Source of the DNA: Candidatus Enteromonas sp.
GTDB lineage: Bacteria > Bacillota_I > Bacilli_A > RFN20 > CAG-826
DNA: 64,000 bases
NCBI GenBank assembly: GCA_034089705.1
Contig: JAXDTZ010000014.1
Span: 28,819-92,818 of the forward strand
Direction of reading: 5' to 3'
The translations under genes and the position numbers were made by a program. The notes under the pieces were generated by a model. The model had not been told where the DNA came from, ran no database searches, and was given only the letters and a program-made list of their open reading frames with translations. Shown here one piece after another: positions 19,724 through 64,000 of this stretch. How positions within the stretch are numbered: the stretch's first letter is position 1; every line of letters begins with the position of its first letter.

Positions 19724-20504
19724 GTTTTTTCTCCTTTTCTGGTTCTTCTTTCAGTATAAAGACCCAATGGGAATTTGTCGAAGAAAACGGATCGTAAACT
19801 AGTCCACTAGGAGTGAGGGAAAGGATTTCTTCTTTGGTTTGCGCCTGCCTTAGAGCGATCTCCCTCGCCATGGCTCCGCGGCATTGCTTGGAAAAGACGG
19901 AGGAAGAAACCCGTTTACCGCCCTTTTCAAGGAAAAAAGAAACGTCGATCACTTCGCTGGGGTCGAGGTATTTCCGGAGGGGCTCGAAGTATTCTTGGCT
20001 CGCGAGGTTGAGGTAAGGTCCGGGGGCATCGATTAGCGTTGCGATTTTCTCTCCAAAATAACGGGCTAAGGATTGGCCCTCCACCTTGTAAGGGTCTCCA
20101 TAATCCAGGCGATAAAAAGGGATGCCATCCATCGGGAGCAATAACCCATAAGCAGCGGAGAAGATCCGGAGGTGCTCTTGGAGGAAAGACAGGCTAACTT
20201 GGGGCAATGTTTCGGGGCTTAAGGAAACGTAGGCCACCCCGTCGTAACGGAAAATCGCGGGGCATAAACCAGGGTTTTGGAACCGCGACACGACGGAGGA
20301 AGCGATGGCGTCCGAGCAACGATAAAACCGTTTCGCCTCGGGCACGTCCATGGCGCGAAGTTTGGCCAAAATGGCGTTCCCTTCTTTTAGTAGCGCCGGG
20401 AGAGAAGAGTAGGGGAAGGAAGATTCCTTCATGGATTTGGCGGGGGATAAAAATAGCAGCATAATTGTGAAAAACCCAGGACCGAAAGGCCCTGGGGGAG
20501 TCAT
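19704..20504 (-). CDS. yaaA: peroxide stress protein YaaA (DUF328/UPF0246)
   Basis: contains the YaaA N-terminal signature MLLFLSPAKSM after a 14-aa extension; ATGA overlap with the rbfA stop supports the 20504 start (alternative ATG 20462). Confidence 0.78.
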   Translation of the reverse strand: MTPPGPFGPGFFTIMLLFLSPAKSMKESSFPYSSLPALLKEGNAILAKLRAMDVPEAKRFYRCSDAIASSVVSRFQNPGLCPAIFRYDGVAYVSLSPETLPQVSLSFLQEHLRIFSAAYGLLLPMDGIPFYRLDYGDPYKVEGQSLARYFGEKIATLIDAPGPYLNLASQEYFEPLRKYLDPSEVIDVSFFLEKGGKRVSSSVFSKQCRGAMAREIALRQAQTKEEILSLTPSGLVYDPFSSTNSHWVFILKEEPEKEKKHVNFDW

Positions 20505-20872
20505 TCTTCGCCTTCTTCCTTCGGGAAAGAAGCGATTTGGGCGCTTTCCCGGGCGAGGGCTTCTTCGATGCGCGAAGCCGAGAGGGAGGTTTCGTCGAGG
20601 ACGAAGCGCACTTTCGGGACCTTGTAAATCGAGAGTTTCTTCGCGAGGGAAGAACGGACGAACCCCTCGGTTTTCTTGAGTTCGGCGATCTTTTGATGGG
20701 GGTATTTCTCCCCCAAGAAGGTGACGTAGACGTCCGCGTAAGAATAGTCGTCGCTGACGATGACTTCGTTGACGCAGACGAGGCCGATGCTCGGCTTTTT
20801 GAGCTCGCCGCGGACGATTTCGGCGATATAACGGGAGATTTCCGATTTGATTCGGCCGGATTTGTTCGCCAT
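20501..20872 (-). CDS. rbfA: ribosome-binding factor A
   Basis: 123 aa with the RbfA KH-like core; immediately downstream of infB with 1-nt overlap. Confidence 0.9.
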   Translation of the reverse strand: MANKSGRIKSEISRYIAEIVRGELKKPSIGLVCVNEVIVSDDYSYADVYVTFLGEKYPHQKIAELKKTEGFVRSSLAKKLSIYKVPKVRFVLDETSLSASRIEEALARESAQIASFPKEEGEE

Positions 20873-22743
20873 TAAGCGGCTCCCTTCTCCACCATCTCGT
20901 AGCCTTCGACGATGTCGCCGGCCTTGATGTCGTTATACCCTTCGACCATGAGTCCGCATTCGTAACCTTCCTTGACTTCCTTCACGTCGTCTTTGTAGCG
21001 GCGAAGGGAGGCGAGTTTGCCATCGTAAACGACGACGCCGTCGCGGATCAAGCGGATCTTCGAGGAGGATTTGATGCAGCCGCTCGTGACGTAGCTGCCC
21101 CCGATGGTGCCGACTTTGTCCATCTTGAAGATGTGGCGGATTTCGGCTTGGCCGGTCACTTGTTCGGTGACTTCCGCCTTCGCCATGCCTTTCATCAGGG
21201 CTTCCATGTCGTCGAGGAGTTCGTAAATGATCTTGTGGAGGCGGATTTCCACGTGGTTCTCTTCCGCTTTTTGGCGGACGCGGGCGTCGGGGCGGACGTT
21301 GAACCCGAAAATCAAGGCGCGGGAGGCCGAAGCGAGCAAGACGTCGTTGTCGGAGATCGCTCCGGCGGAAGCCATGAGGACGTGGACGTGGATGGTGTCG
21401 CTCGACATCTTCTCCAAATTGACCTTCAAGGCTTCGGCGGTGCCGTCGCTGTCGGCTTTCACGAGGATGTTGATGTCGGTGATTTTGCCCGCGTTAACGA
21501 GGTTATTGAGGTCGGCGAGGGTCATCGCGGCGGTTCCGCTGCGCTCCTTTTCCTGTTTGGAAAGGGCGCGCTTTTCGGCGATTTCCTTGGCTTGCCGCTC
21601 TTCGGGGAAGGCCATGAATTTGTCTCCGGCTCCCGGAACGGCGCTCAATCCGATGACGGAAACCGGGGTGCCCGGTCCGGCGGATTTCAAGACTTGGCGG
21701 AATTCGTTGGTCATGCGGCGGATTTTTCCATACGTCTCGCCGACGACCACGTAATCCCCGGCGGTCAAGGTTCCGTTTTGGACAAGAAGGGTGGCTTTGG
21801 GCCCTTCTCCGCGGGAGAGTTCGGATTCAAGGACCGCTCCGATCGCGTAACGGCTGGGGTTGGCCTTGAGTTCGAGCATTTCGGCTTTTAAGAGAATCAT
21901 GTCGAGCAAATCGTCGATTCCCATGCCTTTTTTGGCCGAAATCTCGACGCACATGACGTCTCCCCCGTATTCTTCGGCGATGACGTCGTGCTGCATGAGT
22001 TCCTCTTTGACGCGATGGGGGTCCGCGCCCGCCTTATCCATTTTATTGATGGCGACGATGATGGGGACGCCCGCGGCTTTGGCGTGGTCGATGGCTTCGA
22101 TCGTTTGCGGCATGACCCCATCGTCGCCGGCGACCACGAGGACGACGATGTCGGTGACGGAAGCCCCACGAGCGCGCATCGCGGTGAACGCGGCGTGCCC
22201 CGGGGTATCGATGAAGGTGATCTTCTTTCCGTGGACTTCCTTTTGGTAGGCGCCGATTTCTTGGGAAATGCCTCCGGCTTCGGTGTCGACGATGTGGGAG
22301 GAGCGGATCGCGTCGATCAACGTGGTTTTGCCATGGTCGACATGGCCCATGATGGTGACGACCGCGGGGCGTTCGCGCAAATCCTCTTCGGCGTCTTCGA
22401 CTTCGAGGTCTTCGAAATGCTCTTCATCGACGATCTTCTCTTTTTTGAAGTCGTAACCGAATTCCAAGCAGATGGTGCCGATGGCTTCGTCGTCGAGGAT
22501 TTGGTTGATCGTGACGGCCTTTCCGTTCAAGAAAAGGAATTTGATAATCGCGGGAGTCGGGACGTTGATGGCTTTGGAAAGCTCCGCGACGGTCAGGGGT
22601 TTGGAATAAACGAAAACCCCTCCGTTCACTTTCGCGTATTGGTCTTTCTTCTGGCGGGGTTGGAAATTCGACACGCGGGAATTGCCGCTAGGCTTCCCTT
22701 TCTTTTGGTCGCTTTTCTTGGCTCCGTAATTCGGTTTTTTCAT
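20872..22743 (-). CDS. infB: translation initiation factor IF-2
   Basis: GTPase G-domain ([19 protein letters not shown]), domains II-IV; AAAGGAG RBS before ATG 22743, ATGA overlap with the L7Ae stop; track ORF extends 7 codons upstream. Confidence 0.95.
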
Positions 22744-23039
22744 TCGTCTTCTCCTTTCTTCCATTTTGCTTCAAGGGCCCGGCTTGCTTTCCGGTCCTTG
22801 ACGTAAACGGCGGTGAGTTCGGGGTAGCCTAGGGCGCTCCCGAGCTCGGATTTGCTCACCCCTCGGAGGATGGTCGTTTTGGCGCGGAGGGCTTTTTCCT
22901 CTAGCCGCTTGGCGGTGGCAGAGTTTCCACTAGCCAAAATCAAGACTTCCCCTTCTTTGAGGTGATGGAGGATCGTTTCCCCGATGAGCGTCTTTCCTCC
23001 GCGGTTCAGAAGGCCAAGGAAGAGCAAGGCTTCATTCAT
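22740..23039 (-). CDS. ylxQ: L7Ae-family ribosomal-protein-like protein (YlxQ)
   Basis: ~100 aa L7Ae/L30e fold between ylxR and infB, the conserved Bacillota position; start ATG 23039 overlaps the ylxR end (ATGAATGA). Confidence 0.78.
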   Translation of the reverse strand: MNEALLFLGLLNRGGKTLIGETILHHLKEGEVLILASGNSATAKRLEEKALRAKTTILRGVSKSELGSALGYPELTAVYVKDRKASRALEAKWKKGEDE

Positions 23040-23286
23040 GGATGAGTTCCTCCAACTGGGCAAGGACTCCTTCTTGGAGCGGGGGGAGTTTCTTTTTCAA
23101 AAGCAGCCTCCCATCCCGCAACGCCCGGATGGTTTCCGCGGTTTTGGCCACGTAATACCCTCTTCCGGGGAGGTTTTGGGAAAGATCCAGAAGAAGAAAC
23201 CCGTCTTGGGCGACCAGACGGAAAAGAGAGGATTTCGCCTCCTTTTTCCGCGTGATGAAGTCGGTGCGCAAAACGGGTTTTTCCAT
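23032..23286 (-). CDS. ylxR: YlxR/DUF448 RNA-binding protein
   Basis: 84-aa protein immediately downstream of nusA (2-nt gap), conserved operon position. Confidence 0.78.
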   Translation of the reverse strand: MEKPVLRTDFITRKKEAKSSLFRLVAQDGFLLLDLSQNLPGRGYYVAKTAETIRALRDGRLLLKKKLPPLQEGVLAQLEELIHE

Positions 23287-23288
23287 GC

Positions 23289-25145
23289 TTATTTCTCGTC
23301 GTCGTAATATTCGTCGTAATCTTCGTAGTCGATGTCATCGTCCGGCAAGTCGGAATCGAGGGAGGCATTGCGGTCCTCTTCTTCCATTTGGGCGAGTTCT
23401 TGCTCGGTGTAGATTTCCATTCCGCTGCCGGGGATTTTCGGGGCGGCTTCGCGTTTGACTTCTTCTTCGGAAATCTTGCGCGGGCGCTTAGAACCCTTGG
23501 AGTAGGAAGGCTTGGAGGAAGAATGGCGGCTGCTTTCGAGCTCCTCTTCGAGGGCGGAAAGGGTGGTCGTGGTTTTGACTTCGCGCTTTTCTTCGACCGG
23601 TTCGGGGATCGGCGCAGCTTCGGGAGCAACCGGCGCGCCTTCTTCCGGGGTCGCCTCTTCGGTAGCGGCATCGCGAGCTTGGGCGGCCAAGGCGCGTTGG
23701 CTTTGGAGGGCGGCGAGGGCGGCGGCGGCGGGGTTGATGGCTTCCGCGGGGAAGTCGCTTTCGCTGGCGCTGGCCTTCGGGGTGACCGCGGGCATCTCGG
23801 GAAGGGGTTCGACGCGGGCGAGGCGGGAAGCGCGTTCGGCTTCTTCCTTCTTGCGGCGTTCTTCTTCGAGGGCGGCGAGGCGTTCGGCTTCTTTGCGTTC
23901 CGCTTCCGCGCGGGCTTCTTCCTCGCGCTTCTTCGCTTCTTCGGCGGTCTTGCGGCGGTATTCCTCTTCCGCGGCCGCCTTCTTCAAGCGGGCCTCTTCT
24001 TCTTCGGCTTCCTTGACGGTGATGAAGGAGATGCCGCTTGCGAGGGCTTCGTTCAAGCCAATGAGCTCAATGCGATACCCGGTGAGGCGGGAAGCGAGCG
24101 GGAGGTTTTGGCGATAACGGCCCATTTGTTGGCGGTAAACTTCTTCGGCGAGGACCACTTTGGCGAACTTGTTTTCTTCGTCGATCGAAACCCCGAGGGC
24201 GAGGATCGGGCGAACCGAATCCATGATGAATTTCGGGGCGTAATCGCTCCATTCGATGATGTCGATCTTTTCCTTGTTGCGGGAATTGCCGAGCTGGTTG
24301 ACGATCTTCGTGATGCGGCTTCCGCCCGGACCGATGCAGGCGCCGGTGGCGTCCACCCCTTCTTTGGTGGAGGTGACGGCGATTTTGGACCGAATGCCCG
24401 CGGCGCGACTGATGCCTTTAATGACGACCGATCCGTCGTAAATTTCGTGGATTTCCTCTTCGAACAAGCGCTTGAGGAAGCCTTCGGAGGCGCGGGTGGC
24501 TTCGATCATCGGCCCGCGTTTTTTGCCATTGACGTCTTCGCTGGGGCGAACTTCTTGGATGTAAACCTTGATGGGGTCGCCTTGCTTGAAGTATTCGTCG
24601 CGGATGAGTTCGCGGCGGGTCATTTCGATTTGGGCGCGTCCGATGTCGACGACGACCGTGCGATCATCGGCTTTGAGGACGGTTCCGGTCACCATTTCCC
24701 CGATGTGATCTTTGTAGATGTCGTAGAGTTCGGCGCGTTCGGCTTCGGCGAGGGAACCGCGGAAATAGTTCATCATCGCTTTGGTCGCGGCGTTGGAGAT
24801 GTCGTCGAAATCCGCGGGGATCGCAAAGCGGTCTCCGGGGGCGTAGGTGACGCCTTCCGGGGCCATTTCGTTGGCTTCGGATTCTTCGATCTGCAAATAA
24901 TCGTCTTCGACTTCGTCGTCTTTGCGGACTTCCTTGATTTGGGCGAGGAAAAGTTCGCCGGTTTCCGGGTTGATGTGGCATTCGACGACGGCGTCATCGC
25001 CTCCGCCGAGCACGCGAATGTAACCTTTGATGAGCGCGCTTTCCAAAGCGGAGAGGACGGCGTCGAGGGGAAGGTGTTTTTCCAGGGCGACGGCCTTGGC
25101 GGCGCTGAGCAAGTCGATTTGCTCGTCCTGTTTCTTCTTGGGCAT
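23289..25145 (-). CDS. nusA: transcription termination/antitermination factor NusA with long charged C-terminal extension
   Basis: N-terminal domain, S1 and KH1/KH2 core, then ~250 aa of E/K/R/A-rich and acidic low-complexity tail ending DDIDYEDYDEYYDDEK; AAGGAG RBS 8 nt before ATG 25145. Confidence 0.93.
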   Translation of the reverse strand: MPKKKQDEQIDLLSAAKAVALEKHLPLDAVLSALESALIKGYIRVLGGGDDAVVECHINPETGELFLAQIKEVRKDDEVEDDYLQIEESEANEMAPEGVTYAPGDRFAIPADFDDISNAATKAMMNYFRGSLAEAERAELYDIYKDHIGEMVTGTVLKADDRTVVVDIGRAQIEMTRRELIRDEYFKQGDPIKVYIQEVRPSEDVNGKKRGPMIEATRASEGFLKRLFEEEIHEIYDGSVVIKGISRAAGIRSKIAVTSTKEGVDATGACIGPGGSRITKIVNQLGNSRNKEKIDIIEWSDYAPKFIMDSVRPILALGVSIDEENKFAKVVLAEEVYRQQMGRYRQNLPLASRLTGYRIELIGLNEALASGISFITVKEAEEEEARLKKAAAEEEYRRKTAEEAKKREEEARAEAERKEAERLAALEEERRKKEEAERASRLARVEPLPEMPAVTPKASASESDFPAEAINPAAAALAALQSQRALAAQARDAATEEATPEEGAPVAPEAAPIPEPVEEKREVKTTTTLSALEEELESSRHSSSKPSYSKGSKRPRKISEEEVKREAAPKIPGSGMEIYTEQELAQMEEEDRNASLDSDLPDDDIDYEDYDEYYDDEK

Positions 25146-25173: not shown

Positions 25174-25629
25174 TCAGAATTCAATGGCGAGGCGGGCCTC
25201 GTCGATGGTCGAATAGGGGAAGGAACGCTCGACCACGCGCGTTTTTACCTTTTGGGTCAAGACGACGGTTTCCCCGACGCTTTTTAAGGTTCCTTCGAGG
25301 ATGTTGTCCCCTTGGACCGGGGTCGAGAGGTGCAGGTGGACGTACCGCCCGAGGTAAGCGGGCAATTCTTCGAGGGCGATGCGTTTTTCCGCCCCCGCGC
25401 TGGAGAGGTCAAGGGTGTAGGCCCCGGGAATGGGGTCCTTTTCATCGAGCAAGGCGCTCACGAAGGAACTGAGTTCCACGATGTCTTCCAGCCCGATGGG
25501 GGCGGGACGGTCCACGACGACTTCGAGGACGGATTCCTTGGCTTGTTTGAATTTAACTTCGTAAAGGGAATAGCCTTTTTGCTTCAAAGGCTCGGTCAGA
25601 ATCTCAGAGACGACTTTCGCTTCGTTCAT
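25174..25629 (-). CDS. rimP: ribosome maturation factor RimP
   Basis: ~150 aa RimP (YlxS) fold directly upstream of nusA; GGAGG RBS before ATG 25629/25632. Confidence 0.85.
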   Translation of the reverse strand: MNEAKVVSEILTEPLKQKGYSLYEVKFKQAKESVLEVVVDRPAPIGLEDIVELSSFVSALLDEKDPIPGAYTLDLSSAGAEKRIALEELPAYLGRYVHLHLSTPVQGDNILEGTLKSVGETVVLTQKVKTRVVERSFPYSTIDEARLAIEF

Positions 25630-25657
25630 CATTACCTCCTGGGAAACCATCAAGAAA

Positions 25658-25676
25658 GGGTGGTTTGCAACCACCC
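25658..25676 (-). promoter_or_regulatory. perfect stem-loop in the rimP-nusA leader (candidate attenuator/terminator-like element)
   Basis: GGGUGGUU-UGC-AACCACCC (8-bp GC-rich stem) on the minus strand, followed by CUUUCUU, ~25 nt upstream of the rimP start. Confidence 0.45.
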
Positions 25677-25757
25677 AAAAGTTTTCTTGGCTTTACGGAA
25701 CCGCGACGGGATTTCCGCAACGAAAGTATACCGAATCCTTTTCCCTTTGGGAAGAGG

Positions 25758-26672
25758 TCAATTTCGCTTCTTTTGCTGGTGGAACAAGGTGGCCAAAAGA
25801 TAAGCCATCGGGGGAAGGATGTTGATGAGGTAGAGAAGAATTGGGCCAATGGGCAAGGAAACCAAAAAATCCAAAGGGAAGGCGAAGGTGAGGGATTCGG
25901 CGATCGCTTGGGGGTCATAGGCGGAAGCAAAATAGCCATAAATCGAGAACGCAAGCCCTAGGAGCAAGAAAATCGATCCGGCCTTCATGGTGACTTGGAA
26001 ATGGCGGAAGCCATCGAGTTTCCGCAAGAAAAATTCGTAAAAGGCGAGTTCCACGAGGGGCAAGAGCATGAGCATGTACCAGGGGAGGGTCGCGAAGAAA
26101 TGGGCGAAAGTGAAGTCGTAAGTGAGGAAAAAGAGGGTGATGGGGACGGAGAAAAAGGCGGCGATTCCGCAATACAGGGGAATCAATAGATCGAGGATTA
26201 CGATTCGCTTCCAAAGGGGGATGGGAAGGAATTCCACTTCGTCGTTCTTCGCCTTTTTGATGCCATAGAGGAACCAAAAGAGGCCAACAAAATCAAATAA
26301 GAAACCAAAAATCATGCTGTCGAGGGGGTAAATCCAGGTGATTCCGCCCTCCACCAAAGAATCGAAGGTTCCGTTAGCGAACAAAAGAATCGAAGAAATG
26401 GCGCTTCCGGCCCCAAATAGGCAAGTGAGGGCCCCACCAAGGACAAAGGCTAGGCGATAGGTGGTCTTGCTCCTTGGATGGAGGGCGACGTGCACGGAAA
26501 CCCCAAAGGAAAGCAAGGCGAAAGTGATGAAAAACAAAGGAAGGTAACGAAGGAAGACCGGGGCGTCGCTCGCGAGTTGGCTCACTAGCCCGGGAAGAGA
26601 AACCGAAAGGGCCATTCCTCCCAAAGCAAAGAAGATGGCTTCGAGAACCTCCAACACCCATTTCCGTTTCAT
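25758..26672 (-). CDS. polytopic integral membrane protein (unknown function)
   Basis: ~304 aa with ~9 hydrophobic segments; start ATG 26672 forms an ATGA overlap with the upstream metallophosphoesterase stop. Confidence 0.6.
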   Translation of the reverse strand: MKRKWVLEVLEAIFFALGGMALSVSLPGLVSQLASDAPVFLRYLPLFFITFALLSFGVSVHVALHPRSKTTYRLAFVLGGALTCLFGAGSAISSILLFANGTFDSLVEGGITWIYPLDSMIFGFLFDFVGLFWFLYGIKKAKNDEVEFLPIPLWKRIVILDLLIPLYCGIAAFFSVPITLFFLTYDFTFAHFFATLPWYMLMLLPLVELAFYEFFLRKLDGFRHFQVTMKAGSIFLLLGLAFSIYGYFASAYDPQAIAESLTFAFPLDFLVSLPIGPILLYLINILPPMAYLLATLFHQQKKRN

Positions 26673-27796
26673 GCGAACACCTCCTCTTGGGAAAACCCGT
26701 TCCCCCCTTCGTAAGAATCTTGGTAACTTTGGTAGCAACGGGTGAAATGGACGCTGCCATCCACGGCGATTTCGCTTAAGGTTCCTCCGATCATCCCTTC
26801 TTGGAAGTAGAGGCCATCCCCGGTTTTTAAGCCGTATCCAATGGCGATTTTGGGGGAAGTCTCCTCCAAGGAATATTCGGCGATGAAATCGTTGACGTGA
26901 TCATGGCCGAAGAAGACCCCTTTCCCGTTATGCTCGCTCATTTTGGCGAACATCGAGGTCCTCTTGTATCCGACGTAGCTTCGGGAAACCCCGAGTTCTT
27001 CGCTGGAAATGCTGTCTTTTTCGAGCATCACCCCCGAATAACGCGACAAGAATCCCGGGGCGCTCCCCGTTCCCGGGCGTCCCTTTCCTTCTTCGAGGCT
27101 TTCCCCTTTGTCTCCGGCGAGGCGGAAGGCGAATTCGAGTTCGTGCAGAGGGATATGGCAATAGACCAGGTTCGGAACGTTTTGGGCTTCTTCTTGAACT
27201 TCTTCGTACCAGCGGATTTGGTCATCGTGGATGACGTCGTAATCGTAACGGGAGGCTTGGAGTTGGGTATAGGAATTGCTGTCGATCAAAACGATGTTCC
27301 ATTTGGTTTCCTCCCCTTTTGTGAGGGAGATGGCGAAATTGGAATCTCCGGAGAGTTCGTCGTCGACTTCTTTGCAGATCGCGTATTCGCTTTTTAAGAA
27401 GGCGTCCCTCCAAGCGTTGCGGTGGTAAAAGCCTTGCCGATCATGGTTGCCATAGGTGGTCGCGTAACGAAAATGGTGCTTTTTGGCGAGTTCGTCCATC
27501 GTGGAGACGAAGGAAGAGATCGTTTTGGTGTTGGCGAGCATCGAGTTGTCGCCGGTAAAGACGACGAGGTCCGGGGAAGAGTTCGTCAGCAAGGCGTCGA
27601 GATAGGCTTTTTGGCGGGGAACATCCGTCCCGTAGGTCCAATGCAAATCGGTGAGTTGGAGCACCTTCGCGGTGTCTTTGCCCGAAAAGACATCCAACGT
27701 TTCTATATAAGAAGATAAAGGGATTTCGCCTTTGCCGCAGGAAGCAAGCAATAAGGGGAAAGCGCCCAATAACAATGCGATGGTTCGGCGTTTCAT
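26669..27796 (-). CDS. lipoprotein calcineurin-like metallophosphoesterase
   Basis: 375 aa; lipobox LLLASCG; metallophosphoesterase motifs (TDLHW, GDNS, GNHD, GHDH); ATGA overlap with the upstream gene. Confidence 0.75.
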   Translation of the reverse strand: MKRRTIALLLGAFPLLLASCGKGEIPLSSYIETLDVFSGKDTAKVLQLTDLHWTYGTDVPRQKAYLDALLTNSSPDLVVFTGDNSMLANTKTISSFVSTMDELAKKHHFRYATTYGNHDRQGFYHRNAWRDAFLKSEYAICKEVDDELSGDSNFAISLTKGEETKWNIVLIDSNSYTQLQASRYDYDVIHDDQIRWYEEVQEEAQNVPNLVYCHIPLHELEFAFRLAGDKGESLEEGKGRPGTGSAPGFLSRYSGVMLEKDSISSEELGVSRSYVGYKRTSMFAKMSEHNGKGVFFGHDHVNDFIAEYSLEETSPKIAIGYGLKTGDGLYFQEGMIGGTLSEIAVDGSVHFTRCYQSYQDSYEGGNGFSQEEVFA

Positions 27797-28716
27797 GAAA
27801 GATCCTCCGTATTGGTCTTGACCGAGCAGTGGCGTTTGGCCAAGAAGGTTTCGATGGCCCGTTCAGTATAGGGCTTGGAATACAAAGAGTCGAGGTATTG
27901 GGAAAGCGCGATGCGTTCGCCCCGGGTTTTCTCATCGAAAGCAAGACCGCGGAGAAGCGGGGTGAGTTGGTCTTTTCCATAATAGCAAGGCGCGTCGAAG
28001 AAAAAGGAACGGTACGCGGGGTTGTTCGGAAGGAACAAGGGCTTATGGAAGCGAATGGCGAAAAACGCCGACAAGGGGAAATCGGAAAAACTCGGCAAGG
28101 GGAGGATGGCGTCGCTATGGATGGCGTAAGGCAAAACCTCGTCCAAAGACTTCGCGGGGACGAGGGAAAAGTTGGCTTTCTTTTTGGGTTCTTTGGCCAA
28201 GGGGTTAAAAAGAACCAATTGGAAATCGGGGTTTTCTTTGGCCAAATCCATGGCGAAATCTTCCCCTTCCCCGTATTCGCTAAAAAGGAACACGCGGAAC
28301 CGGGCGGAAGAGTTTTGGAATAAAGAGGGGATTTCGCAGGAAGAGTTGACGGGAAAATCCAAGAAAGGTGGGATGAAAACCACTCTTTTTCGGTTCTCCC
28401 GGGTGATAAGCTCTTGGCTTAAGACCATGGCGAAGGCGGAACGTTGGAGCCTCACCCAATCCCAAAGCCGGCGAAATCGGTTTTTCGAAGATCGGGAAGA
28501 GACGAGGAAACTGATACGATCTTTCTTGGATGGGATCCGCTTCGATCCTTCCTCTTTGACAACCAAGGCACGGGAAGAGGATTTCGGGGTCATTTTTTCA
28601 TAAGCCCCATCCAGAAAGTGAGCATATTCTTGAAGCGCCAAATCCCCCAAAAAACGGGAAGCTTTGTTTCCGCGGATGGGGTAGATGGAGAAAAAAGGCG
28701 AGTTCGGCATACCCAT
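27793..28716 (-). CDS. hypothetical protein, first gene of a translationally coupled 3-gene operon
   Basis: 307-aa ORF with no motif I recognise; codon usage like neighbours; upstream region carries promoter-like and palindromic elements. Confidence 0.5.
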   Translation of the reverse strand: MGMPNSPFFSIYPIRGNKASRFLGDLALQEYAHFLDGAYEKMTPKSSSRALVVKEEGSKRIPSKKDRISFLVSSRSSKNRFRRLWDWVRLQRSAFAMVLSQELITRENRKRVVFIPPFLDFPVNSSCEIPSLFQNSSARFRVFLFSEYGEGEDFAMDLAKENPDFQLVLFNPLAKEPKKKANFSLVPAKSLDEVLPYAIHSDAILPLPSFSDFPLSAFFAIRFHKPLFLPNNPAYRSFFFDAPCYYGKDQLTPLLRGLAFDEKTRGERIALSQYLDSLYSKPYTERAIETFLAKRHCSVKTNTEDLS

Positions 28717-57845: not shown

Positions 57846-60673
57846 GGTTCCTCCAAGAAGAGGAGAGCGCAAAGGCCGACGGCTTTGCTGGAGAGTAGCC
57901 TCCCGGAAGCGCAAAAGGCCTTCATTTCTCCGGATTTGGATTTTAAAGAAAGGTCAAACGCGTCGAATTCTTCCGTTTTCCCTTCCGGGACCTCCTTCTT
58001 TTGGAGGCGCGAAAGAATCTCTTTCCCTTGTTCTGGGCAAAGGGAGAGGAAGTCTTCGTTGCGTTGGAGGAAATCGGATTCCCCTTCAAATCCAAGAGCG
58101 GTCCAAAGGTATTCGTTGGAATAGATGATCGATCCATCCCCTAGAGCGGAGAAATAGAGGATTCCTCCGGGGATGTTGGAAAGGAAATCCGCGCGTTCGT
58201 AGACCGAAGATACGTCGCGGAACAAAGCGAAATAAACCTCGGATTCCCCTTCGTTTTTGAGGTAATGGGTTTCCACGTTCAACACGATGGGCTTTTTCGG
58301 GGTTTGGAAGCGGATGGCGGCGGATCTCCCATTCTGGAAGAAGAGAGAAGCGAACTGCTCGCGGTCTTCTTCGCTGCAGCCGATTTTCGAGAAATCCCCA
58401 ATCGAAGGATCCCCTTCGTTCCAATCAAGGGAAAGGAGGCGCACGAAGGTGAGATTGGCGCTGGTTAGGCGGACTTCCCCTTCCCGTTTTTCGAAGAAGG
58501 CGATGGGGCCAACGAGGGAAGCCACCGCTTCGTCGGGATAATCGACGTCGATGAGGATTCTCGCCACGTCGCTTCGGCGGAGGCGGTGGAAGGGCAATTC
58601 AAACAGAGCGTTTTTCCTCGGTTCGTAGGCTTCCATCAAGGCCTCGAATTCGTTTTCGGGCAAAGGGAGGGAGAAATAGAACCCTTGGATAACGTCGCAC
58701 CCGCTGCCGCGGAGGAAGAGGAATTGTTCGCGGGTTTCCACCCCTTCGGCGATGACCGTCATCCCCAAATCCTGAGCCAAATCCATGACGTGGGTCAACG
58801 TGATTTCCGCGCGGGGGTTTCCGATCAAATCGATGAGGGATTTGTCGATTTTGATCACGTCGAAATGGAGGATGTCCATGGAGTAGAGCGAAGAATACCC
58901 GGCTCCGAAATCGTCCATGTCGAGGACGAATCCTTTTTGGTAGAGGGCATCCGCAAAATCCTTGACGTCTCGAGAAGAGATGGCCGCGGTTTCGGTGATT
59001 TCCAAGGGGACGAGGTTCAGCGGGACCCCATATTCTTTGGCGATTTGGCTATAGACTTCCGCGACGGGAAATTGGAACAAGGTGTTTCGCGACAGATTGA
59101 CCGAGATGGGAAAGAGTTTTCTCCCCAAGGCGATGTTCTTGGCTTGGAAAGCGCAGACGGCGGAGAAGACATAACGATCCATCGCGATGATTCGTTCGTC
59201 GCGTTCGAATACCTTGATGAATTCGGTCGGGGAGAGGATTTCCCCGTTCTTGATCCAGCGAACCAAGGCTTCCGCGCCAAAGAGTTCTCCTGTTTTGGCG
59301 GTGTATTTCGGTTGGTAATACAAAACGAATTCTCGGTTTTCGATGCCGGATTCGAAATCCTCTTGGAATTTGAGTTCGCGAAACAGATCGTCTTGCATCG
59401 TCGGGGAATACACCGCGGCGGCAATGGGGGTTTTCCCGTTCAAGGAAGAAAGGGCCAAACGCCCCCGATTGATGGCTTCGTTGAGGGAAATGCCTGCGGG
59501 GAGGCTCTTCACGATGCCGAACCGGAAATGGAGGTTCCGCAAGGGGGCGTGAAGGGTTATTCGATCTTTGGATTCTTCGATGGTTTGGAGCGAGATGCGG
59601 TCATTGGAATGGGCCAACAGGCAAATCCGATCCCCTTCGTAGCGCCCGACGAAGATGGCTCCGGGGGTGAGGTAGCAGCATTTGGCGAGGTATTGGATCA
59701 CCGCGTCTCCGCTAGAAAGGCCGTAGACGTTATTGATCGTTTTGAGATCCACGATGTCGGCGAGGATCAAATCCAACGCCTCGTCTTTGGCGGAAGAGAG
59801 ATAGTGTTCCGCTTTCGTGACGAAAGCTTGGCGGGTGAGGATTCCCGTGAGTTCGTCCCGTTCGAGGGAAGTGATCTTGTTCTCCTCTTGTTGGATCAGC
59901 ACGATATTGCGGGCGAATCGAACGATGGCCTCTTCGCTTCGGGAAGAGGGTTCGGCGCAGATGGCCCCGAAAGAAGAAAGGAGAGAAACTTGTTCTTCGG
60001 TTTGGGAATCCAAATAGCAAAGGACAGGCAGGTTATTTAGTAGCGGGCATTGGCTTTTGTGGCGGATGAAGCGATAGATGTCCTCGGTAAGGGAAGGGGC
60101 GAAGAAAAGGAAGGCGGAATATTTGTTGTGGTCTTTTTCGATTTGACGGAAGGACTCCTGGGTGAGTTCGAAGGGAGTCACTTCAAAGGATTGCTTCAAA
60201 AAAGAACTGACGGGGACGAGATGGGAGTCATAGACGAGCAGGGATTGTTCGTTTCCCCCAAAGCCGGTGAGGCGGCTGAGGGAACGCGAAAGGACGTAGG
60301 AATCTTCATAGCCGAAACCCACGATCGCCTTTTTGGAGTCGTCTCCTTTCCGGACGGCTTTGGCCTTGATGAAATGGATGCCGTCATCTTTTACAATGCG
60401 GTAATGCAGGGTGAAGGTGGGGACTTCGGAGATCAGGGCTAGGCAGTTCTTGGGATCGAACGAAGCGAGGAATTTTTCCTTGTCCCCGGGATAGACGATG
60501 CGTTCCGCGTATTCGTAAACGAAGGAAGAGAGGTCGCTTTTTTGGCCATCTTGGTGCAAGGGGCTTTGATTTCCTTTCACAAAAGTGAACGAAAGCGTCT
60601 CGAAATCGACTTCGACGACATCCTCGAAATCCAACGAGAGATAACAAGAAGGGGACATGTTCTGGGAATCCAT
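57833..60673 (-). CDS. PAS - degenerate GGDEF - EAL - PAS-PAS c-di-GMP phosphodiesterase
   Basis: ~946 aa; GGDEF motif degenerated to RYEGDRI; intact EAL signatures (AEALVRW, EITETAA, DMDDFGAGYSS, EGVETREQ, QGFYFS); PAS-like segments at both ends; track ORF starts at upstream TTG 60691. Confidence 0.85.
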   Translation of the reverse strand: MDSQNMSPSCYLSLDFEDVVEVDFETLSFTFVKGNQSPLHQDGQKSDLSSFVYEYAERIVYPGDKEKFLASFDPKNCLALISEVPTFTLHYRIVKDDGIHFIKAKAVRKGDDSKKAIVGFGYEDSYVLSRSLSRLTGFGGNEQSLLVYDSHLVPVSSFLKQSFEVTPFELTQESFRQIEKDHNKYSAFLFFAPSLTEDIYRFIRHKSQCPLLNNLPVLCYLDSQTEEQVSLLSSFGAICAEPSSRSEEAIVRFARNIVLIQQEENKITSLERDELTGILTRQAFVTKAEHYLSSAKDEALDLILADIVDLKTINNVYGLSSGDAVIQYLAKCCYLTPGAIFVGRYEGDRICLLAHSNDRISLQTIEESKDRITLHAPLRNLHFRFGIVKSLPAGISLNEAINRGRLALSSLNGKTPIAAAVYSPTMQDDLFRELKFQEDFESGIENREFVLYYQPKYTAKTGELFGAEALVRWIKNGEILSPTEFIKVFERDERIIAMDRYVFSAVCAFQAKNIALGRKLFPISVNLSRNTLFQFPVAEVYSQIAKEYGVPLNLVPLEITETAAISSRDVKDFADALYQKGFVLDMDDFGAGYSSLYSMDILHFDVIKIDKSLIDLIGNPRAEITLTHVMDLAQDLGMTVIAEGVETREQFLFLRGSGCDVIQGFYFSLPLPENEFEALMEAYEPRKNALFELPFHRLRRSDVARILIDVDYPDEAVASLVGPIAFFEKREGEVRLTSANLTFVRLLSLDWNEGDPSIGDFSKIGCSEEDREQFASLFFQNGRSAAIRFQTPKKPIVLNVETHYLKNEGESEVYFALFRDVSSVYERADFLSNIPGGILYFSALGDGSIIYSNEYLWTALGFEGESDFLQRNEDFLSLCPEQGKEILSRLQKKEVPEGKTEEFDAFDLSLKSKSGEMKAFCASGRLLSSKAVGLCALLFLEEPWNR

Positions 60674-60705
60674 AGCACAAGAAAAATCCAACGATAAAAG
60701 TATAC

Positions 60706-60724
60706 CCTATATTTCAAATATAGG
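60706..60724. promoter_or_regulatory. perfect 19-bp palindrome CCTATATTT-C-AAATATAGG in the divergent promoter region
   Basis: 9-bp arms around a single central C; 33-51 nt upstream of the GGDEF-EAL ATG; contains TATA-like -10 candidates on both strands. Confidence 0.4.
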
Positions 60725-60893
60725 AATTCGAAAATGATTCTTTTTTCTTGCGCCGAGGAATCCAAAACCCTTCTCCTTTTCGAAACAGAGGATCGATTCA
60801 TTGCCAAAAAACAAAAAAGAATGGGGACAGGTATGCGAATTCGGGGGATTTTGGCAAACGAAAGAAGAAAGGAATAATGAAACGGAAAGGAAA

Positions 60894-61400
60894 ATGGATT
60901 ACAATCCTTGCATGTTCCACATCGTCCTCGTTGAACCGGAAATCCCGCAAAACACCGGGAATATCATTCGCTCCATCGCCGCGACGGGCGCAATGCTCCA
61001 TTTGATTGAACCCTTGGGATTCCAAATGGACGAAAAGCACCTAAGACGCGCGGGACTCGATTATTTCCCTTTGGCGAAAATCCTCATTCACCCTAGTTTT
61101 GAAGAATACGAGGCGCGTTATCCGGAATCCCGGAAGTTCTTCTTCTCTTCTCACGCGACCCAAAGTTTTACGGAAGTGTCTTACCAAGACGGCGACCATT
61201 TGGTGTTTGGTAAGGAATCCGTGGGATTGTCCAAAGAAATCGTGGAACGTTATTCATCAAATCTCGTTCGCATCCCCATGAAAAAGGAAGCCCGTTGCAT
61301 CAACCTCTCGAACGCGGTCGCGGTGGGTTTGTTTTTCGCTTTGTATCAAAATGGGTTTCCAGGCCTAGAATCTTCTTCCCCTGACCCTTATTTGCCCTAG
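60894..61400 (+). CDS. trmL: tRNA (cytidine/uridine-2'-O-)-methyltransferase TrmL (SpoU-TrmD class)
   Basis: MFHIVLVEPEIPQNTGNIIRSIAATG closely matches the TrmL N-terminus; ATG 60894 (or 60912) preferred over the long TTG-initiated track ORF. Confidence 0.85.
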   Translation: MDYNPCMFHIVLVEPEIPQNTGNIIRSIAATGAMLHLIEPLGFQMDEKHLRRAGLDYFPLAKILIHPSFEEYEARYPESRKFFFSSHATQSFTEVSYQDGDHLVFGKESVGLSKEIVERYSSNLVRIPMKKEARCINLSNAVAVGLFFALYQNGFPGLESSSPDPYLP

Positions 61401-61729
61401 TCCCCTCGATGAAGGGAAACTTCTTTGGAAAATCCGTTCGGGAATCGATGAGATAGTTTTTCGATGTTTTTATCGAAGATTTCCTCCAAGGGAATCTCCA
61501 AATAGGTGGCGAGTTCGGCGAGATACCAAGCGACGTCTCCGAGTTCTTCCACTATTTTTTCTTTTGAAAGAGGATGGCCCTGCGCGAGGTGTTTTTTCAC
61601 GAGGTCGATCACCTCGCCGGATTCCCCGCATAACCCCATGACCCCGTTGATGAGCAGGTCGTTCCCGGTGAGTTCGGGGTTGATGAATTTTTTGGCTTCT
61701 TCTTGGTACTTATTGGGTTTCATTGGCAT
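61397..61729 (-). CDS. small MazG-like nucleotide pyrophosphohydrolase
   Basis: 110 aa; EELGDVAWYL EExxE/D metal-binding helix typical of the MazG/YpjD all-alpha NTP-PPase fold; convergent CTAG stop overlap with trmL. Confidence 0.72.
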   Translation of the reverse strand: MPMKPNKYQEEAKKFINPELTGNDLLINGVMGLCGESGEVIDLVKKHLAQGHPLSKEKIVEELGDVAWYLAELATYLEIPLEEIFDKNIEKLSHRFPNGFSKEVSLHRGD

Positions 61730-61862
61730 TCCTCATCGAAATTTTGATTCTTCTTCCCCTTGGATGCAAGGGGATATGGGGAAAAGGCAATAGCCAAACA
61801 ACCAAAGGAAGGCAACTCGATAAAGGAGATGTCGAAAAGGAGCCTCAGGTAAAAGAGAATGC

Positions 61863-62792
61863 CTAGTTGCTTAAGCGATATGTACCAAATTTGAAAACTT
61901 TATCTTCCACATTCGTTTGGCTTTCGCCATGATGGTACAGTCCATCGATGACTATTGCCCCATCCGTTAATTCAAAATTGCCTCGTAGATAAAAAACTGG
62001 CGGGTAATCGCTAGAAAACGTCATATCGTATTTGTCGCGGTCTTCGCGCCTTATGTGCTCATAGGGGTCATGGTCAATATAAAGATATATTGTCTTTTTA
62101 TCAGCGGAAGTCCAGTAGACTCCTTCCACCACTTCATCTCCGTTTTTATATTGAAATAAAGCGTGAATATAGGGTTTCGGTATGACGCATGTCATAGATA
62201 CATTTTCATCTAATGAATATGTTCCTTCCGGGATCTGATATTGTTTTGCGTATTTGTAATTATCTTGATCCCGTTTATGTTCTTTGCCTTCTAGAACATA
62301 GGTTCCCAGTTTATAGGGGAGCTCGCTGATTCTATATACATGCGTATAGATTCTCCCATCATTCATGCCTTCGTATCTTTCTTCTTTGATGGTCGTAAAT
62401 TGGGTGAAATCGGTCTCGAAATCATCTACATAGGTATAAAGCCAGTCTTTCTTTTCCGCGCCGTCTCTAGATAAAACAAAATTGACCGTAAAAGTATTTG
62501 CGCCATCATTTGGGTCATAAACGACTCGATAATGGCCTTCATATTTATCTTGACCATCTTCCACATATTTAAATGACATGGCGTCTTTGCTTCCGTCAAA
62601 TTCAAAGAAAGTATCCGATTGATCTTTCAATATCCATTTGCCGGTTGATGAATCAAGCTCTTCATCGTATTCGATGGTGCTATCGCTTTGATTTGCAGTT
62701 CCGTTAAATAAGCCGCATGCGGTTAATGAAAAGCTAGTCAAAAGGCAAAAAGCAGAAGAGAGAATAGTTACTACCTTATTACGCACAATCAA
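61863..62792 (-). CDS. lipoprotein (309 aa) encoded in a low-GC segment
   Basis: signal peptide with lipobox SLTACG; AT-rich codon usage unlike the rest of the window; no linker or module shared with the main lipoprotein array. Confidence 0.7.
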   Translation of the reverse strand: MIVRNKVVTILSSAFCLLTSFSLTACGLFNGTANQSDSTIEYDEELDSSTGKWILKDQSDTFFEFDGSKDAMSFKYVEDGQDKYEGHYRVVYDPNDGANTFTVNFVLSRDGAEKKDWLYTYVDDFETDFTQFTTIKEERYEGMNDGRIYTHVYRISELPYKLGTYVLEGKEHKRDQDNYKYAKQYQIPEGTYSLDENVSMTCVIPKPYIHALFQYKNGDEVVEGVYWTSADKKTIYLYIDHDPYEHIRREDRDKYDMTFSSDYPPVFYLRGNFELTDGAIVIDGLYHHGESQTNVEDKVFKFGTYRLSN

Positions 62793-63091
62793 AGCCTCCT
62801 TCTTTTGGCTTTCATTTTAAATTTTCAATGCCGTTTTTACTACTCTTATTCCATGAGTGTCTTTGTCTTCCGACGCAGCGGACGCGTGGAAAGGAATCGA
62901 GCCAATGGCAATCCCTCTTTTTTTCGGCCGTATGCGCTAAAAAAAGAAAAGTCGTGGCTTTGGGCGGAATAAGCCCCTGATTTCCGTATCAAGGGCTAGA
63001 TTCTAAAATTGTTTGTAAATAACAATATAAAATAGATAGGCTAAATGCCCTAGGTGTAACAACAAATTTGATCCACTGGTGGAAGATAAGA

Positions 63092-63520
63092 TTAAATTAG
63101 GGTTAATAAATAGCCCAGTATTGGTCCAATGAATATTGCGATATAGATTAGAGTGATCCATGGTTGATATTCAACGTAGAATTGCTTGAATGTCAAACTC
63201 CACGGATGCTTGATAATCACCCAGCCAAAAACATCGAATACAATACAAATCGAAACCCATATTGCTCCAGTAATGAATGCTTCTGCTATTGTTGGATTGG
63301 ATAATCCGTTCATGTAGATGAATCCAAACACTGTGAAAATGACAATATTGTACAAAGGATGCCATGGTTTGGTTTTCTCATATCCTTCTCCCATGGACTC
63401 TTTATCCATTGGTTTCATATGGAGAACGTAAATATTGAATATTGTATGAAGCATTCCAATTAATGTGACAATGATATAGGCAATCCAAAACCATAGCATT
63501 GAGAGTCCGAAATCTTGCAT
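63092..63520 (-). CDS. small integral membrane protein (142 aa, 4 TM), low-GC
   Basis: GGGAGG RBS 9 nt upstream of ATG 63520; four hydrophobic helices. Confidence 0.6.
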   Translation of the reverse strand: MQDFGLSMLWFWIAYIIVTLIGMLHTIFNIYVLHMKPMDKESMGEGYEKTKPWHPLYNIVIFTVFGFIYMNGLSNPTIAEAFITGAIWVSICIVFDVFGWVIIKHPWSLTFKQFYVEYQPWITLIYIAIFIGPILGYLLTLI

Positions 63521-63561
63521 TATTTACAACCTCCCGATAGCCATTTTATTTACCCAGTGTT

Positions 63562-63894
63562 TTATAGTCCCGTCATTTTCCAAGATGCGAATATATTTTT
63601 GAATTGAAGTTTATTTAAGCCTAGAATTGCGATTAACTCCATAGTCGTAATATTAGGATTATTTCTCATTTCCGATACAATTCTATTCATATTTAATCGC
63701 GACTTGTTCACTTTTTGCTCACTTTCTTGCTCGCTTTCTTGCTCGCTTTTGGATGTTTTGCGAGCAACAACACGATTATATTTTATCGAAACTTTTATAT
63801 AATCGGGTCCAAAATAGAAAGCGTCTTTGCCATAAGCGTCAACAATTAGACTTGACCGTCTCGGAATGGCATTCCGAAAAGTACCGGAAACCAA
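63562..63894 (-). CDS. hypothetical protein with C-terminal winged-helix/HTH-like segment and internal SEQE repeat
   Basis: 110-aa ORF; C-terminal NPNITTMELIAILGLNKLQ resembles a wHTH recognition region; start codon uncertain. Confidence 0.45.
   Translation of the reverse strand: MVSGTFRNAIPRRSSLIVDAYGKDAFYFGPDYIKVSIKYNRVVARKTSKSEQESEQESEQKVNKSRLNMNRIVSEMRNNPNITTMELIAILGLNKLQFKNIFASWKMTGL
63715..63750 (-). repeat. three tandem copies of a 12-nt unit (TTGCTCRCTTTY) inside the 63562..63894 ORF
   Basis: ttgctcactttc / ttgctcgctttc / ttgctcgctttt on the + strand; encodes SEQESEQESEQK in-frame. Confidence 0.6.
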
Positions 63895-64000
63895 CGGTTT
63901 ATTGTTTTTTGAAAAAATTAATCATTGCTCTTTAATGCTGCATATTCCTCTTCCAAACTTAAAACAAAGGACTCATTAGGGTAAAGATGTAAATCAAAAT

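Follow-up and report, generated by a model that had tools for sequence, protein, structure and literature searches.

The DNA analyzed here, a stretch of 64,000 nucleotides to which we refer as the window, encodes on its minus strand the operon rimP-nusA-ylxR-infB-rbfA, preceded by a leader with two RNA hairpins that we call hairpin 1 and hairpin 2 in the order of transcription (Table 1). Homologues of its RimP place the window among uncultured gut Bacilli (Enteromonas-like), the nearest RimP relative being encoded in a 'Candidatus Enteromonas sp.' genome and 78% identical. Across the whole 64-kb window no Rfam family reached its gathering score, which means that the scan detected neither a tRNA nor an rRNA, riboswitch or T-box. 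The segment from 60001 to 64000 has a G+C content of 0.42, compared with about 0.53 in the remaining window, and could be foreign or otherwise distinct DNA.

Within the operon, rimP begins with adjacent in-frame ATG codons at 25632 and 25629 (25627-25632, minus strand). Because the second has the better and more usual spacing from the Shine-Dalgarno sequence AGGAGG, and because homologues align from residue 2, the annotated rimP start may be one codon early. The NusA proteins of the clade are about 550-630 aa long (loci L001-L080), compared with 372 aa in the B. subtilis group, and that of the window has a long, charged, Lys/Glu/Ala-rich C-terminal extension (23289-24000, minus strand) ending in a conserved acidic, Tyr-rich tail (...YTEEEL...DY.EYD.YYDDEK). 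The 107-aa open reading frame between ylxR and infB, for which no Pfam match was found at E <= 1e-5, occupies the place of the L7Ae-family gene ylxQ in Bacillus (L081 4410-4712). The terminator-like hairpin that directly follows rbfA is stronger than the hairpin in the leader, with 9 pairs, of which 7 are G-C, and an uninterrupted U5.

Table 1. Features of the rimP operon and its leader, in the order of transcription, with their coordinates in the window.
Feature	Position	Strand	Basis
-35-like hexamer TTCCCA, predicted rimP operon promoter	25748..25753	-	promoter scan
-10 box TATACT	25725..25730	-	promoter scan and comparison of relatives
Hairpin 1, GCGGAA-AUC-CCG-UCG-CGG-UUCCGU, bulged stem-loop	25695..25718	-	fold, model R3
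Linker, non-conserved, with CAAGAAA (25689..25683) able to pair with the U-tract UUUCUUG	25677..25694	-	alignment A5, fold
Hairpin 2, GGGUGGUU-GCA-AACCACCC	25658..25676	-	fold, terminator scan, model R2
Interrupted U-tract UUUCUUG	25651..25657	-	sequence reading
Shine-Dalgarno AGGAGG of rimP	25635..25640	-	sequence; (A)GGAGG conserved in alignments
rimP coding sequence	25174..25632	-	Pfam RimP_N and RimP C-terminal domain; homologues named RimP
nusA, 618 aa	23289..25145	-	Pfam NusA_N and NusA KH domain
Rest of operon: ylxR, 107-aa ORF, infB, rbfA	20501..23286	-	Pfam
ylxR	23032-23286	-	Pfam YlxR
107-aa ORF between ylxR and infB	22740-23063	-	ORF only
infB	20872-22764	-	Pfam IF-2 domains
rbfA	20501-20872	-	Pfam RBFA
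Terminator-like hairpin CCCAGGGCC-UUUC-GGUCCUGGG, then UUUUUCACAA, directly after rbfA	20475..20496	-	terminator scan

Architecture of the leader

The interval 25633-25757 is exactly the entire intergenic region upstream of rimP. At its upstream end, a promoter scan identified TTCCCA-17-TATACT, with 9 of 12 matches, and on the mRNA strand TATACT lies 6 nt from hairpin 1 (GCGGAAAUCCCGUCGCGGUUCCGU). A small inverted repeat, CUCUUCCC-AAA-GGGAAAAG (25739-25757, minus strand), overlaps the -35-like hexamer and stands directly 3' of the upstream stop codon. Similar repeats of other sequence occur over the -35 region in a subset of related loci (L001, L040, L005, L006, L013, L021 and L069); a generally conserved inverted repeat at this place was rejected, given its restriction to that subset and a mean z-score of -0.78.

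Hairpin 2 has a perfect stem of 8 bp, pairing 25676..25669 with 25665..25658 on the minus strand, around a loop of 3 nt. The mRNA strand reads ...CAAGAAAACUUUU GGGUGGUU GCA AACCACCC UUUCUUGAUGGUUUCCCAGGAGGUAAUGAUG..., and on the 3' side of the hairpin follow UUUCUUGAUGGUUUCCC, AGGAGG, UA and AUGAUG. The stem is trailed by UUUCUU (25657..25652) and ends 25 nt from the first rimP ATG and 28 nt from the second, some 11-17 nt 5' of AGGAGG. An earlier note on this DNA had described a perfect hairpin with a CUUUCUU-type tail about 25 nt before rimP; the stem, the tail and the distance stand as given there, and the loop that it reported, UGC, is the plus-strand reading of what is GCA on the transcript.

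The energy of hairpin 2 is -11.4 kcal/mol, and the terminator scan counts 8 pairs in its stem, including 5 G-C pairs. Considered as a single sequence, its significance is modest: when the 125-nt region was shuffled 400 times with its dinucleotides preserved, an equally good hairpin with a T-rich tail arose in 25 cases, and the terminator scan, being loose, has a high background (33 hairpins found, 19 +/- 4.5 expected). These statistics support the hairpin only weakly, and we judge it to be real because it is conserved among relatives, as described below.

The two hairpins are separated by a linker of 18 nt that shows no conservation (alignment A5), and the minimum-energy fold lengthens the hairpin 2 stem through the A-rich stretch of this linker. 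No competing antiterminator was visible in the folding ensemble of the leader, where hairpin 2 pairs with a probability of 0.998 in the window and of 0.999 as the median of 51 sequences. An RNA switch was rejected, the pairing probability of hairpin 2 being about 1 and nothing hinting at an alternative fold.

Conservation among related loci

Comparison was made with 80 species-level loci whose RimP proteins are 43-78% identical to that of the window. In 79 of them a hairpin plus T-rich tail was found directly, with its end 14-38 nt upstream of rimP (median 21). The exception, L024, has a mis-called rimP start, and a covariance model of the whole leader (R1) places its leader at L024 2315-2406; with L024 counted after this start-codon correction, a terminator-like hairpin is present in 80 of 80 related loci. 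The median energy of these hairpins is -12.5 kcal/mol.

Two further covariance models were used, one of hairpin 2 alone, made from this clade only (R2), and one of hairpin 1 (R3). R1 detects the leader in 62 of 81 sources, in each case directly upstream of rimP, and R2, run on the 64-kb window, has hairpin 2 as its sole significant match (29.2 bits, the next reaching 14.1). In the whole-leader alignment 95.5% of the cells are paired and double changes occur at 12 of 15 pairs, while the core of hairpin 2 has 100% of its cells paired and compensatory changes at 4 of 6 pairs; these counts lean towards structure, the alignment having been fitted to the model, and an unfitted MAFFT alignment gives the same compensatory pairs. 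None of 500 shuffles reached the pairing values of the leader, and controls in which the alignment was slid collapsed. The earlier note had offered conservation of the hairpin in related genomes as a check on its reading, and the hairpin proves to be both universal in the set and covarying, with no close relative found to lack it.

It is not the pairing alone that is retained. The clade consensus of hairpin 2 is GAGUGGcc..ggCCACUC UUUCUUUU, and among 42 distinct clade sequences the first three positions of the tail are U in 38-42. Position 4 is C in 23 of the 42 and something other than U in 30, the rest of the tail being U-rich. AT-rich relatives have the canonical tail UAUUUUUUU.

What is new in this clade is the second conserved hairpin, located at the predicted 5' end of the transcript. 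Hairpin 1 is built from an outer stem of 6 bp, a 3-nt bulge on the 5' side (AUC or AAC), an inner stem of 3-4 bp and a variable loop; the bulge and its flanking bases are conserved, and the outer stem shows changes on both sides at all 6 of its pairs. It scores 39.2 bits with R3, which finds no second significant copy in the 64-kb window and which, in the relatives, detects it in 57 loci, once in each and always in the rimP leader. Overall, about 57-62 of the 80 loci share hairpin 1. It is missing from the AT-rich clade members, which keep only the terminator with its canonical U-tract, and R3 did not find it in the Bacillus or E. coli loci.

The promoter is likewise maintained. In 49 of 54 leaders the base of hairpin 1 is preceded, at a distance of 6-7 nt, by a TATAAT-like hexamer, and the relatives have a -35-like element, such as TTGCAA, TTGAAA or TTCCCA, 16-18 nt upstream of this -10 box. 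Transcription is thus predicted to start at about 25719-25717. Since a conserved -10 box lies upstream of both hairpins, these would be transcribed as a leader; since only 25 nt separate hairpin 2 from the start codon, leaving no room for another promoter, rimP transcripts must cross hairpin 2. These observations bear out the placement of the hairpin by the earlier note, within the operon leader and downstream of the promoter, with rimP, nusA, ylxR, infB and rbfA following.

Relation to known rimP leaders

Hairpin 2 is a member of the already known rimP-leader and is not new as an idea. The rimP-leader was described across bacteria by Naville & Gautheret (2010, Genome Biol 11:R97, PMC2965389) as a short terminator that combines G-rich 5' and C-rich 3' arms with a T stretch and an unusually conserved stem sequence, standing 4-130 nt before rimP with no antiterminator and ranging over Firmicutes, Proteobacteria, Cyanobacteria and other phyla. 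The same study proposed NusA as the factor that recognizes and regulates through the element, named feedback by RimP as an alternative, and noted that the ribosome-binding site may lie within the leader (PMC2965389). The window agrees with this description in its location in the 5' UTR of rimP-nusA-infB, at a distance of 25-28 nt that falls within the published 4-130 nt, and in its single hairpin with G-rich and C-rich arms, a T stretch and no antiterminator.

Common to both is also the stem signature RRGUGG..CCRCYY-UU. Among the published leaders it is seen in Staphylococcus (GAGUGGGCAUAUACCCGCUCUUUUCUAUU), Rhizobiales (GAGUGGGCCG..GACCCGCUCUUUUUU), Rickettsia (AGGUGGGUUUAUCCCACCUUUUUU) and Clostridia, and clostridial rimP-leaders, such as GAGUGGGUUUUCCCACUCUUUCUUG, share the UUUCU tail of the window as well. 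As a strict pattern (RRGTGG, 3-22 nt, CCRCYY, TT), the signature matches 28 of the 42 published leaders that we copied from the supplement, together with the window and the B. subtilis-group leader; in the 80 related loci it has 53 matches in the rimP leader, compared with 9 elsewhere in 405 kb. The only other site in the window with RRGTGG..CCRCYY-TT, at 28364-28387 on both strands (GAGTGGTTTTCATCCCACCTTT), lies inside a 307-aa open reading frame, has a stem of 5 bp and scores 10.5 bits with R2; this match is probably due to chance.

There are differences from the published element as well. Its apex, GGGc(...)gCCC, is absent from the window in its literal form: there, GGGU...ACCC is found at the base of the stem, so that a GGGUGG/CCACCC stem is capped by an A-U-rich apex. 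Furthermore, no conserved element of larger size was reported in 2010, whereas this clade adds the bulged hairpin where the transcript is predicted to begin.

The leader of the B. subtilis group provides the closest link to experiment. The operon of B. subtilis has the same order as that of the window, rimP-nusA-ylxR-(ylxQ position)-infB, and its nusA is autoregulated by NusA-stimulated termination in the 5' leader (PMC12288461, citing Mondal 2016), a precedent on which the earlier note had drawn and which the literature thus confirms. Among the Bacillus and E. coli loci, the best match of R2 is a leader hairpin of B. inaquosorum, AGAGUGGGGAAACCCGCUCUUUUGUAU (AAAGAGUGGGGAAACCCGCUCUUUUGUAU), at 19.7 bits and E = 0.0023. 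A model made from this clade only therefore recognizes the B. subtilis-group leader hairpin, AGAGUGGGGAAACCCGCUCU-UUUGUAUU, which has an interrupted U-tract, as in the window. The full-leader model R1 gives the B. subtilis-group leader only 8.6 bits, because hairpin 1 and the spacing differ, and the model of hairpin 2 alone was needed for its detection.

In architecture the two leaders diverge. That of Bacillus is about 180 nt long, has no hairpin 1 and places the motif hairpin 130 nt before rimP, unlike the window with its single terminator 25 nt before rimP, after hairpin 1. It also has two tandem hairpins, the motif hairpin (L081 2347-2375) and a second one (L081 2421-2449), either of which may be the NusA-dependent one. 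The second hairpin of B. inaquosorum, CCCUGCU-CUUUUGA-AGCAGGG UUUUUAU, is more canonical and stands about 50 nt before rimP; a hairpin of this second type was entered for B. licheniformis in the 2010 supplement (PMC2965389).

The Rfam family RF01770, 'Gammaproteobacteria rimP leader', concerns the same operon and the same idea, and the general rimP-leader motif is found in it as the second hairpin (GGGCU..GCCC-UUUUUUU). Unlike the window, however, the family represents the tandem form of the gammaproteobacteria, in which a CCCCG..CGGGG terminator stands upstream and the U7 tract is perfect. RF01770 gave no match at E <= 10 between 25400 and 26000 and none at its gathering threshold (47 bits) anywhere in the window, nor did it match the Bacillus leader at E <= 10, while the E. 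coli control scored 102 bits. These scans also brought up no other relevant Rfam family, either for the window or for the Bacillus leader.

Probable attenuation and competing explanations

We consider it probable that hairpin 2 serves as the terminator in a transcription attenuator of the rimP-leader type, with NusA as the best candidate effector. The sigma-70-type promoter TTCCCA-17-TATACT would start transcription at about 25718, and the first ~24 nt of the transcript would fold into hairpin 1; ~18 nt later GGGUGGUU-GCA-AACCACCC would form, followed by UUUCUU. A fraction of the polymerases would stop at hairpin 2, releasing an RNA of ~65 nt, and the remaining polymerases would continue into rimP-nusA-ylxR-infB-rbfA. 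With NusA as the effector, negative feedback would ensue, more NusA giving more termination and hence less operon mRNA.

The signal in the window is suboptimal in its U-tract, UUUCUUG, alone, the 8-bp hairpin not being weak. Both the absence of an antiterminator and the break of the U-tract at position 4 fit with factor-dependent termination, and distal interruptions of the U-tract have been reported for NusA-dependent, and also for NusG-dependent, terminators of B. subtilis (PMC8060035). Given that there is no antiterminator, that the stem sequence is conserved and that the U-tract is suboptimal, it is most likely a protein, working on the elongation complex, that determines how efficiently termination occurs. 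That the stem sequence is conserved across phyla would point to sequence-specific recognition, presumably by NusA. NusA dependence has been measured in B. subtilis only, to which the window is likened by homology and sequence features. From this likeness we infer that termination occurs at hairpin 2 and that NusA acts as effector in the Enteromonas-like organism. The earlier note had assigned the hairpin to a class of weak-U-tract terminators that depend on NusA; the UUUCUU interruption is indeed of the reported kind (PMC8060035), and homology is what suggests the dependence on NusA here. Its broader interpretation, NusA autoregulation through a leader terminator, is supported by the comparative analysis.

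Several other explanations deserve consideration. An upstream membrane-protein gene (26738..25758) runs in the same direction and ends 82 nt before hairpin 2, and a co-directional open reading frame of ~300 aa precedes rimP in most relatives, so that hairpin 2 could be taken for the ordinary 3'-end terminator or insulator of that gene, with no role for rimP. Hairpin 2 will block some upstream read-through in any case. This explanation is nevertheless very unlikely: hairpin 2 is separated from the upstream stop codon by a conserved promoter, and the 25-nt gap to rimP obliges rimP transcripts to cross the hairpin. The upstream neighbor of rimP, moreover, varies and is divergent in at least 12 loci, and the leader remains unchanged next to unrelated or divergent genes encoding an HTH protein (L051), a short-chain dehydrogenase (L035), an AAA_14 protein (L010) and a NUDIX protein (L057). 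The stem signature, too, is specific to rimP leaders (53 leader matches against 9 elsewhere in the 80 loci) and is found upstream of rimP across phyla. On the varied and divergent neighbors and the conserved promoter, we reject a terminator of the upstream gene.

A purely post-transcriptional role, in which hairpin 2 would cause no meaningful termination and would instead stabilize or process the mRNA or control the access of ribosomes to the Shine-Dalgarno sequence, is suggested by the position of AGGAGG just about 11-17 nt past the stem, by the poor U-tract UUUCUUG and by the proposal that the leader may include the ribosome-binding site (PMC2965389); hairpin 1 is placed as a 5' stabilizer would be, at the predicted start of the transcript. 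Such a role would leave the conservation of the T-rich tail (U at positions 1-3 in 38-42 of 42 sequences) without a purpose, and AT-rich relatives carry the canonical UAUUUUUUU. The homologous Bacillus leaders lie 130 nt from the start codon, too distant for an effect on the ribosome-binding site, and termination in the B. subtilis leader has been reported experimentally (PMC12288461). We therefore regard this role as unlikely. The same holds for an attenuator whose effector is not NusA, with RimP, YlxR, RbfA or free 30S subunits recognizing the stem sequence, hairpin 1 or both. The conservation of the stem sequence across phyla, beyond mere pairing, speaks for sequence-specific recognition, feedback by RimP is the alternative named in the 2010 study (PMC2965389), and the 3-nt bulge of hairpin 1, conserved with its flanking bases, suggests a protein site; the arms GGAGUGG and CCACUCUUUCU might also be seen as loosely similar to Shine-Dalgarno and anti-Shine-Dalgarno sequences. 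The experimental precedents, on the other hand, all concern NusA, in E. coli in 1985 (as cited in PMC2965389) and in B. subtilis in 2016 (PMC12288461), and hairpin 1, missing from AT-rich clade members, Bacillus and E. coli, is not essential to the shared mechanism. An effector other than NusA accordingly seems improbable to us, and attenuation with NusA as the candidate effector is the explanation that we prefer.

As for hairpin 1, its simplest role, judged by position, looks like that of a 5'-terminal stabilizing stem-loop, and its conserved bulge leaves room for a candidate protein site. More speculatively, hairpin 1 might be a protein-recognition module that makes a generic terminator into a two-part sensor, serving for example as a high-affinity site for loading NusA, with its unusually long C-terminal extension, onto the nascent RNA, or as a site for YlxR or RbfA, and so tuning termination at hairpin 2 about 20 nt downstream; we hold this to be doubtful. 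Three further ideas were rejected. A K-turn for an L7Ae-like protein is contradicted by the lack of tandem G.A pairs beside the 3-nt bulge and by the lack of a Pfam match for the open reading frame in the ylxQ position. A repeated regulon element is contradicted by the single copy in the window and in each locus. No link to the C-terminal extension of NusA was found, that extension being present in the whole clade, with or without hairpin 1.

The confirmation of hairpin 2 leaves the established picture of rimP operon control as it was, and the clade-specific 5' hairpin is a small addition to that picture. Rfam 15 does not detect the non-gammaproteobacterial rimP-leader, and the leaders of the clade, which contribute about 60 new aligned examples with covariation, could serve as the seed of a family for it. 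Our findings add a large clade of uncultured, Enteromonas-like gut Bacilli with reduced genomes to the range of a known and very widespread attenuator, and confirm that a conserved stem sequence, beyond the hairpin alone, has been maintained over very long evolutionary distances.
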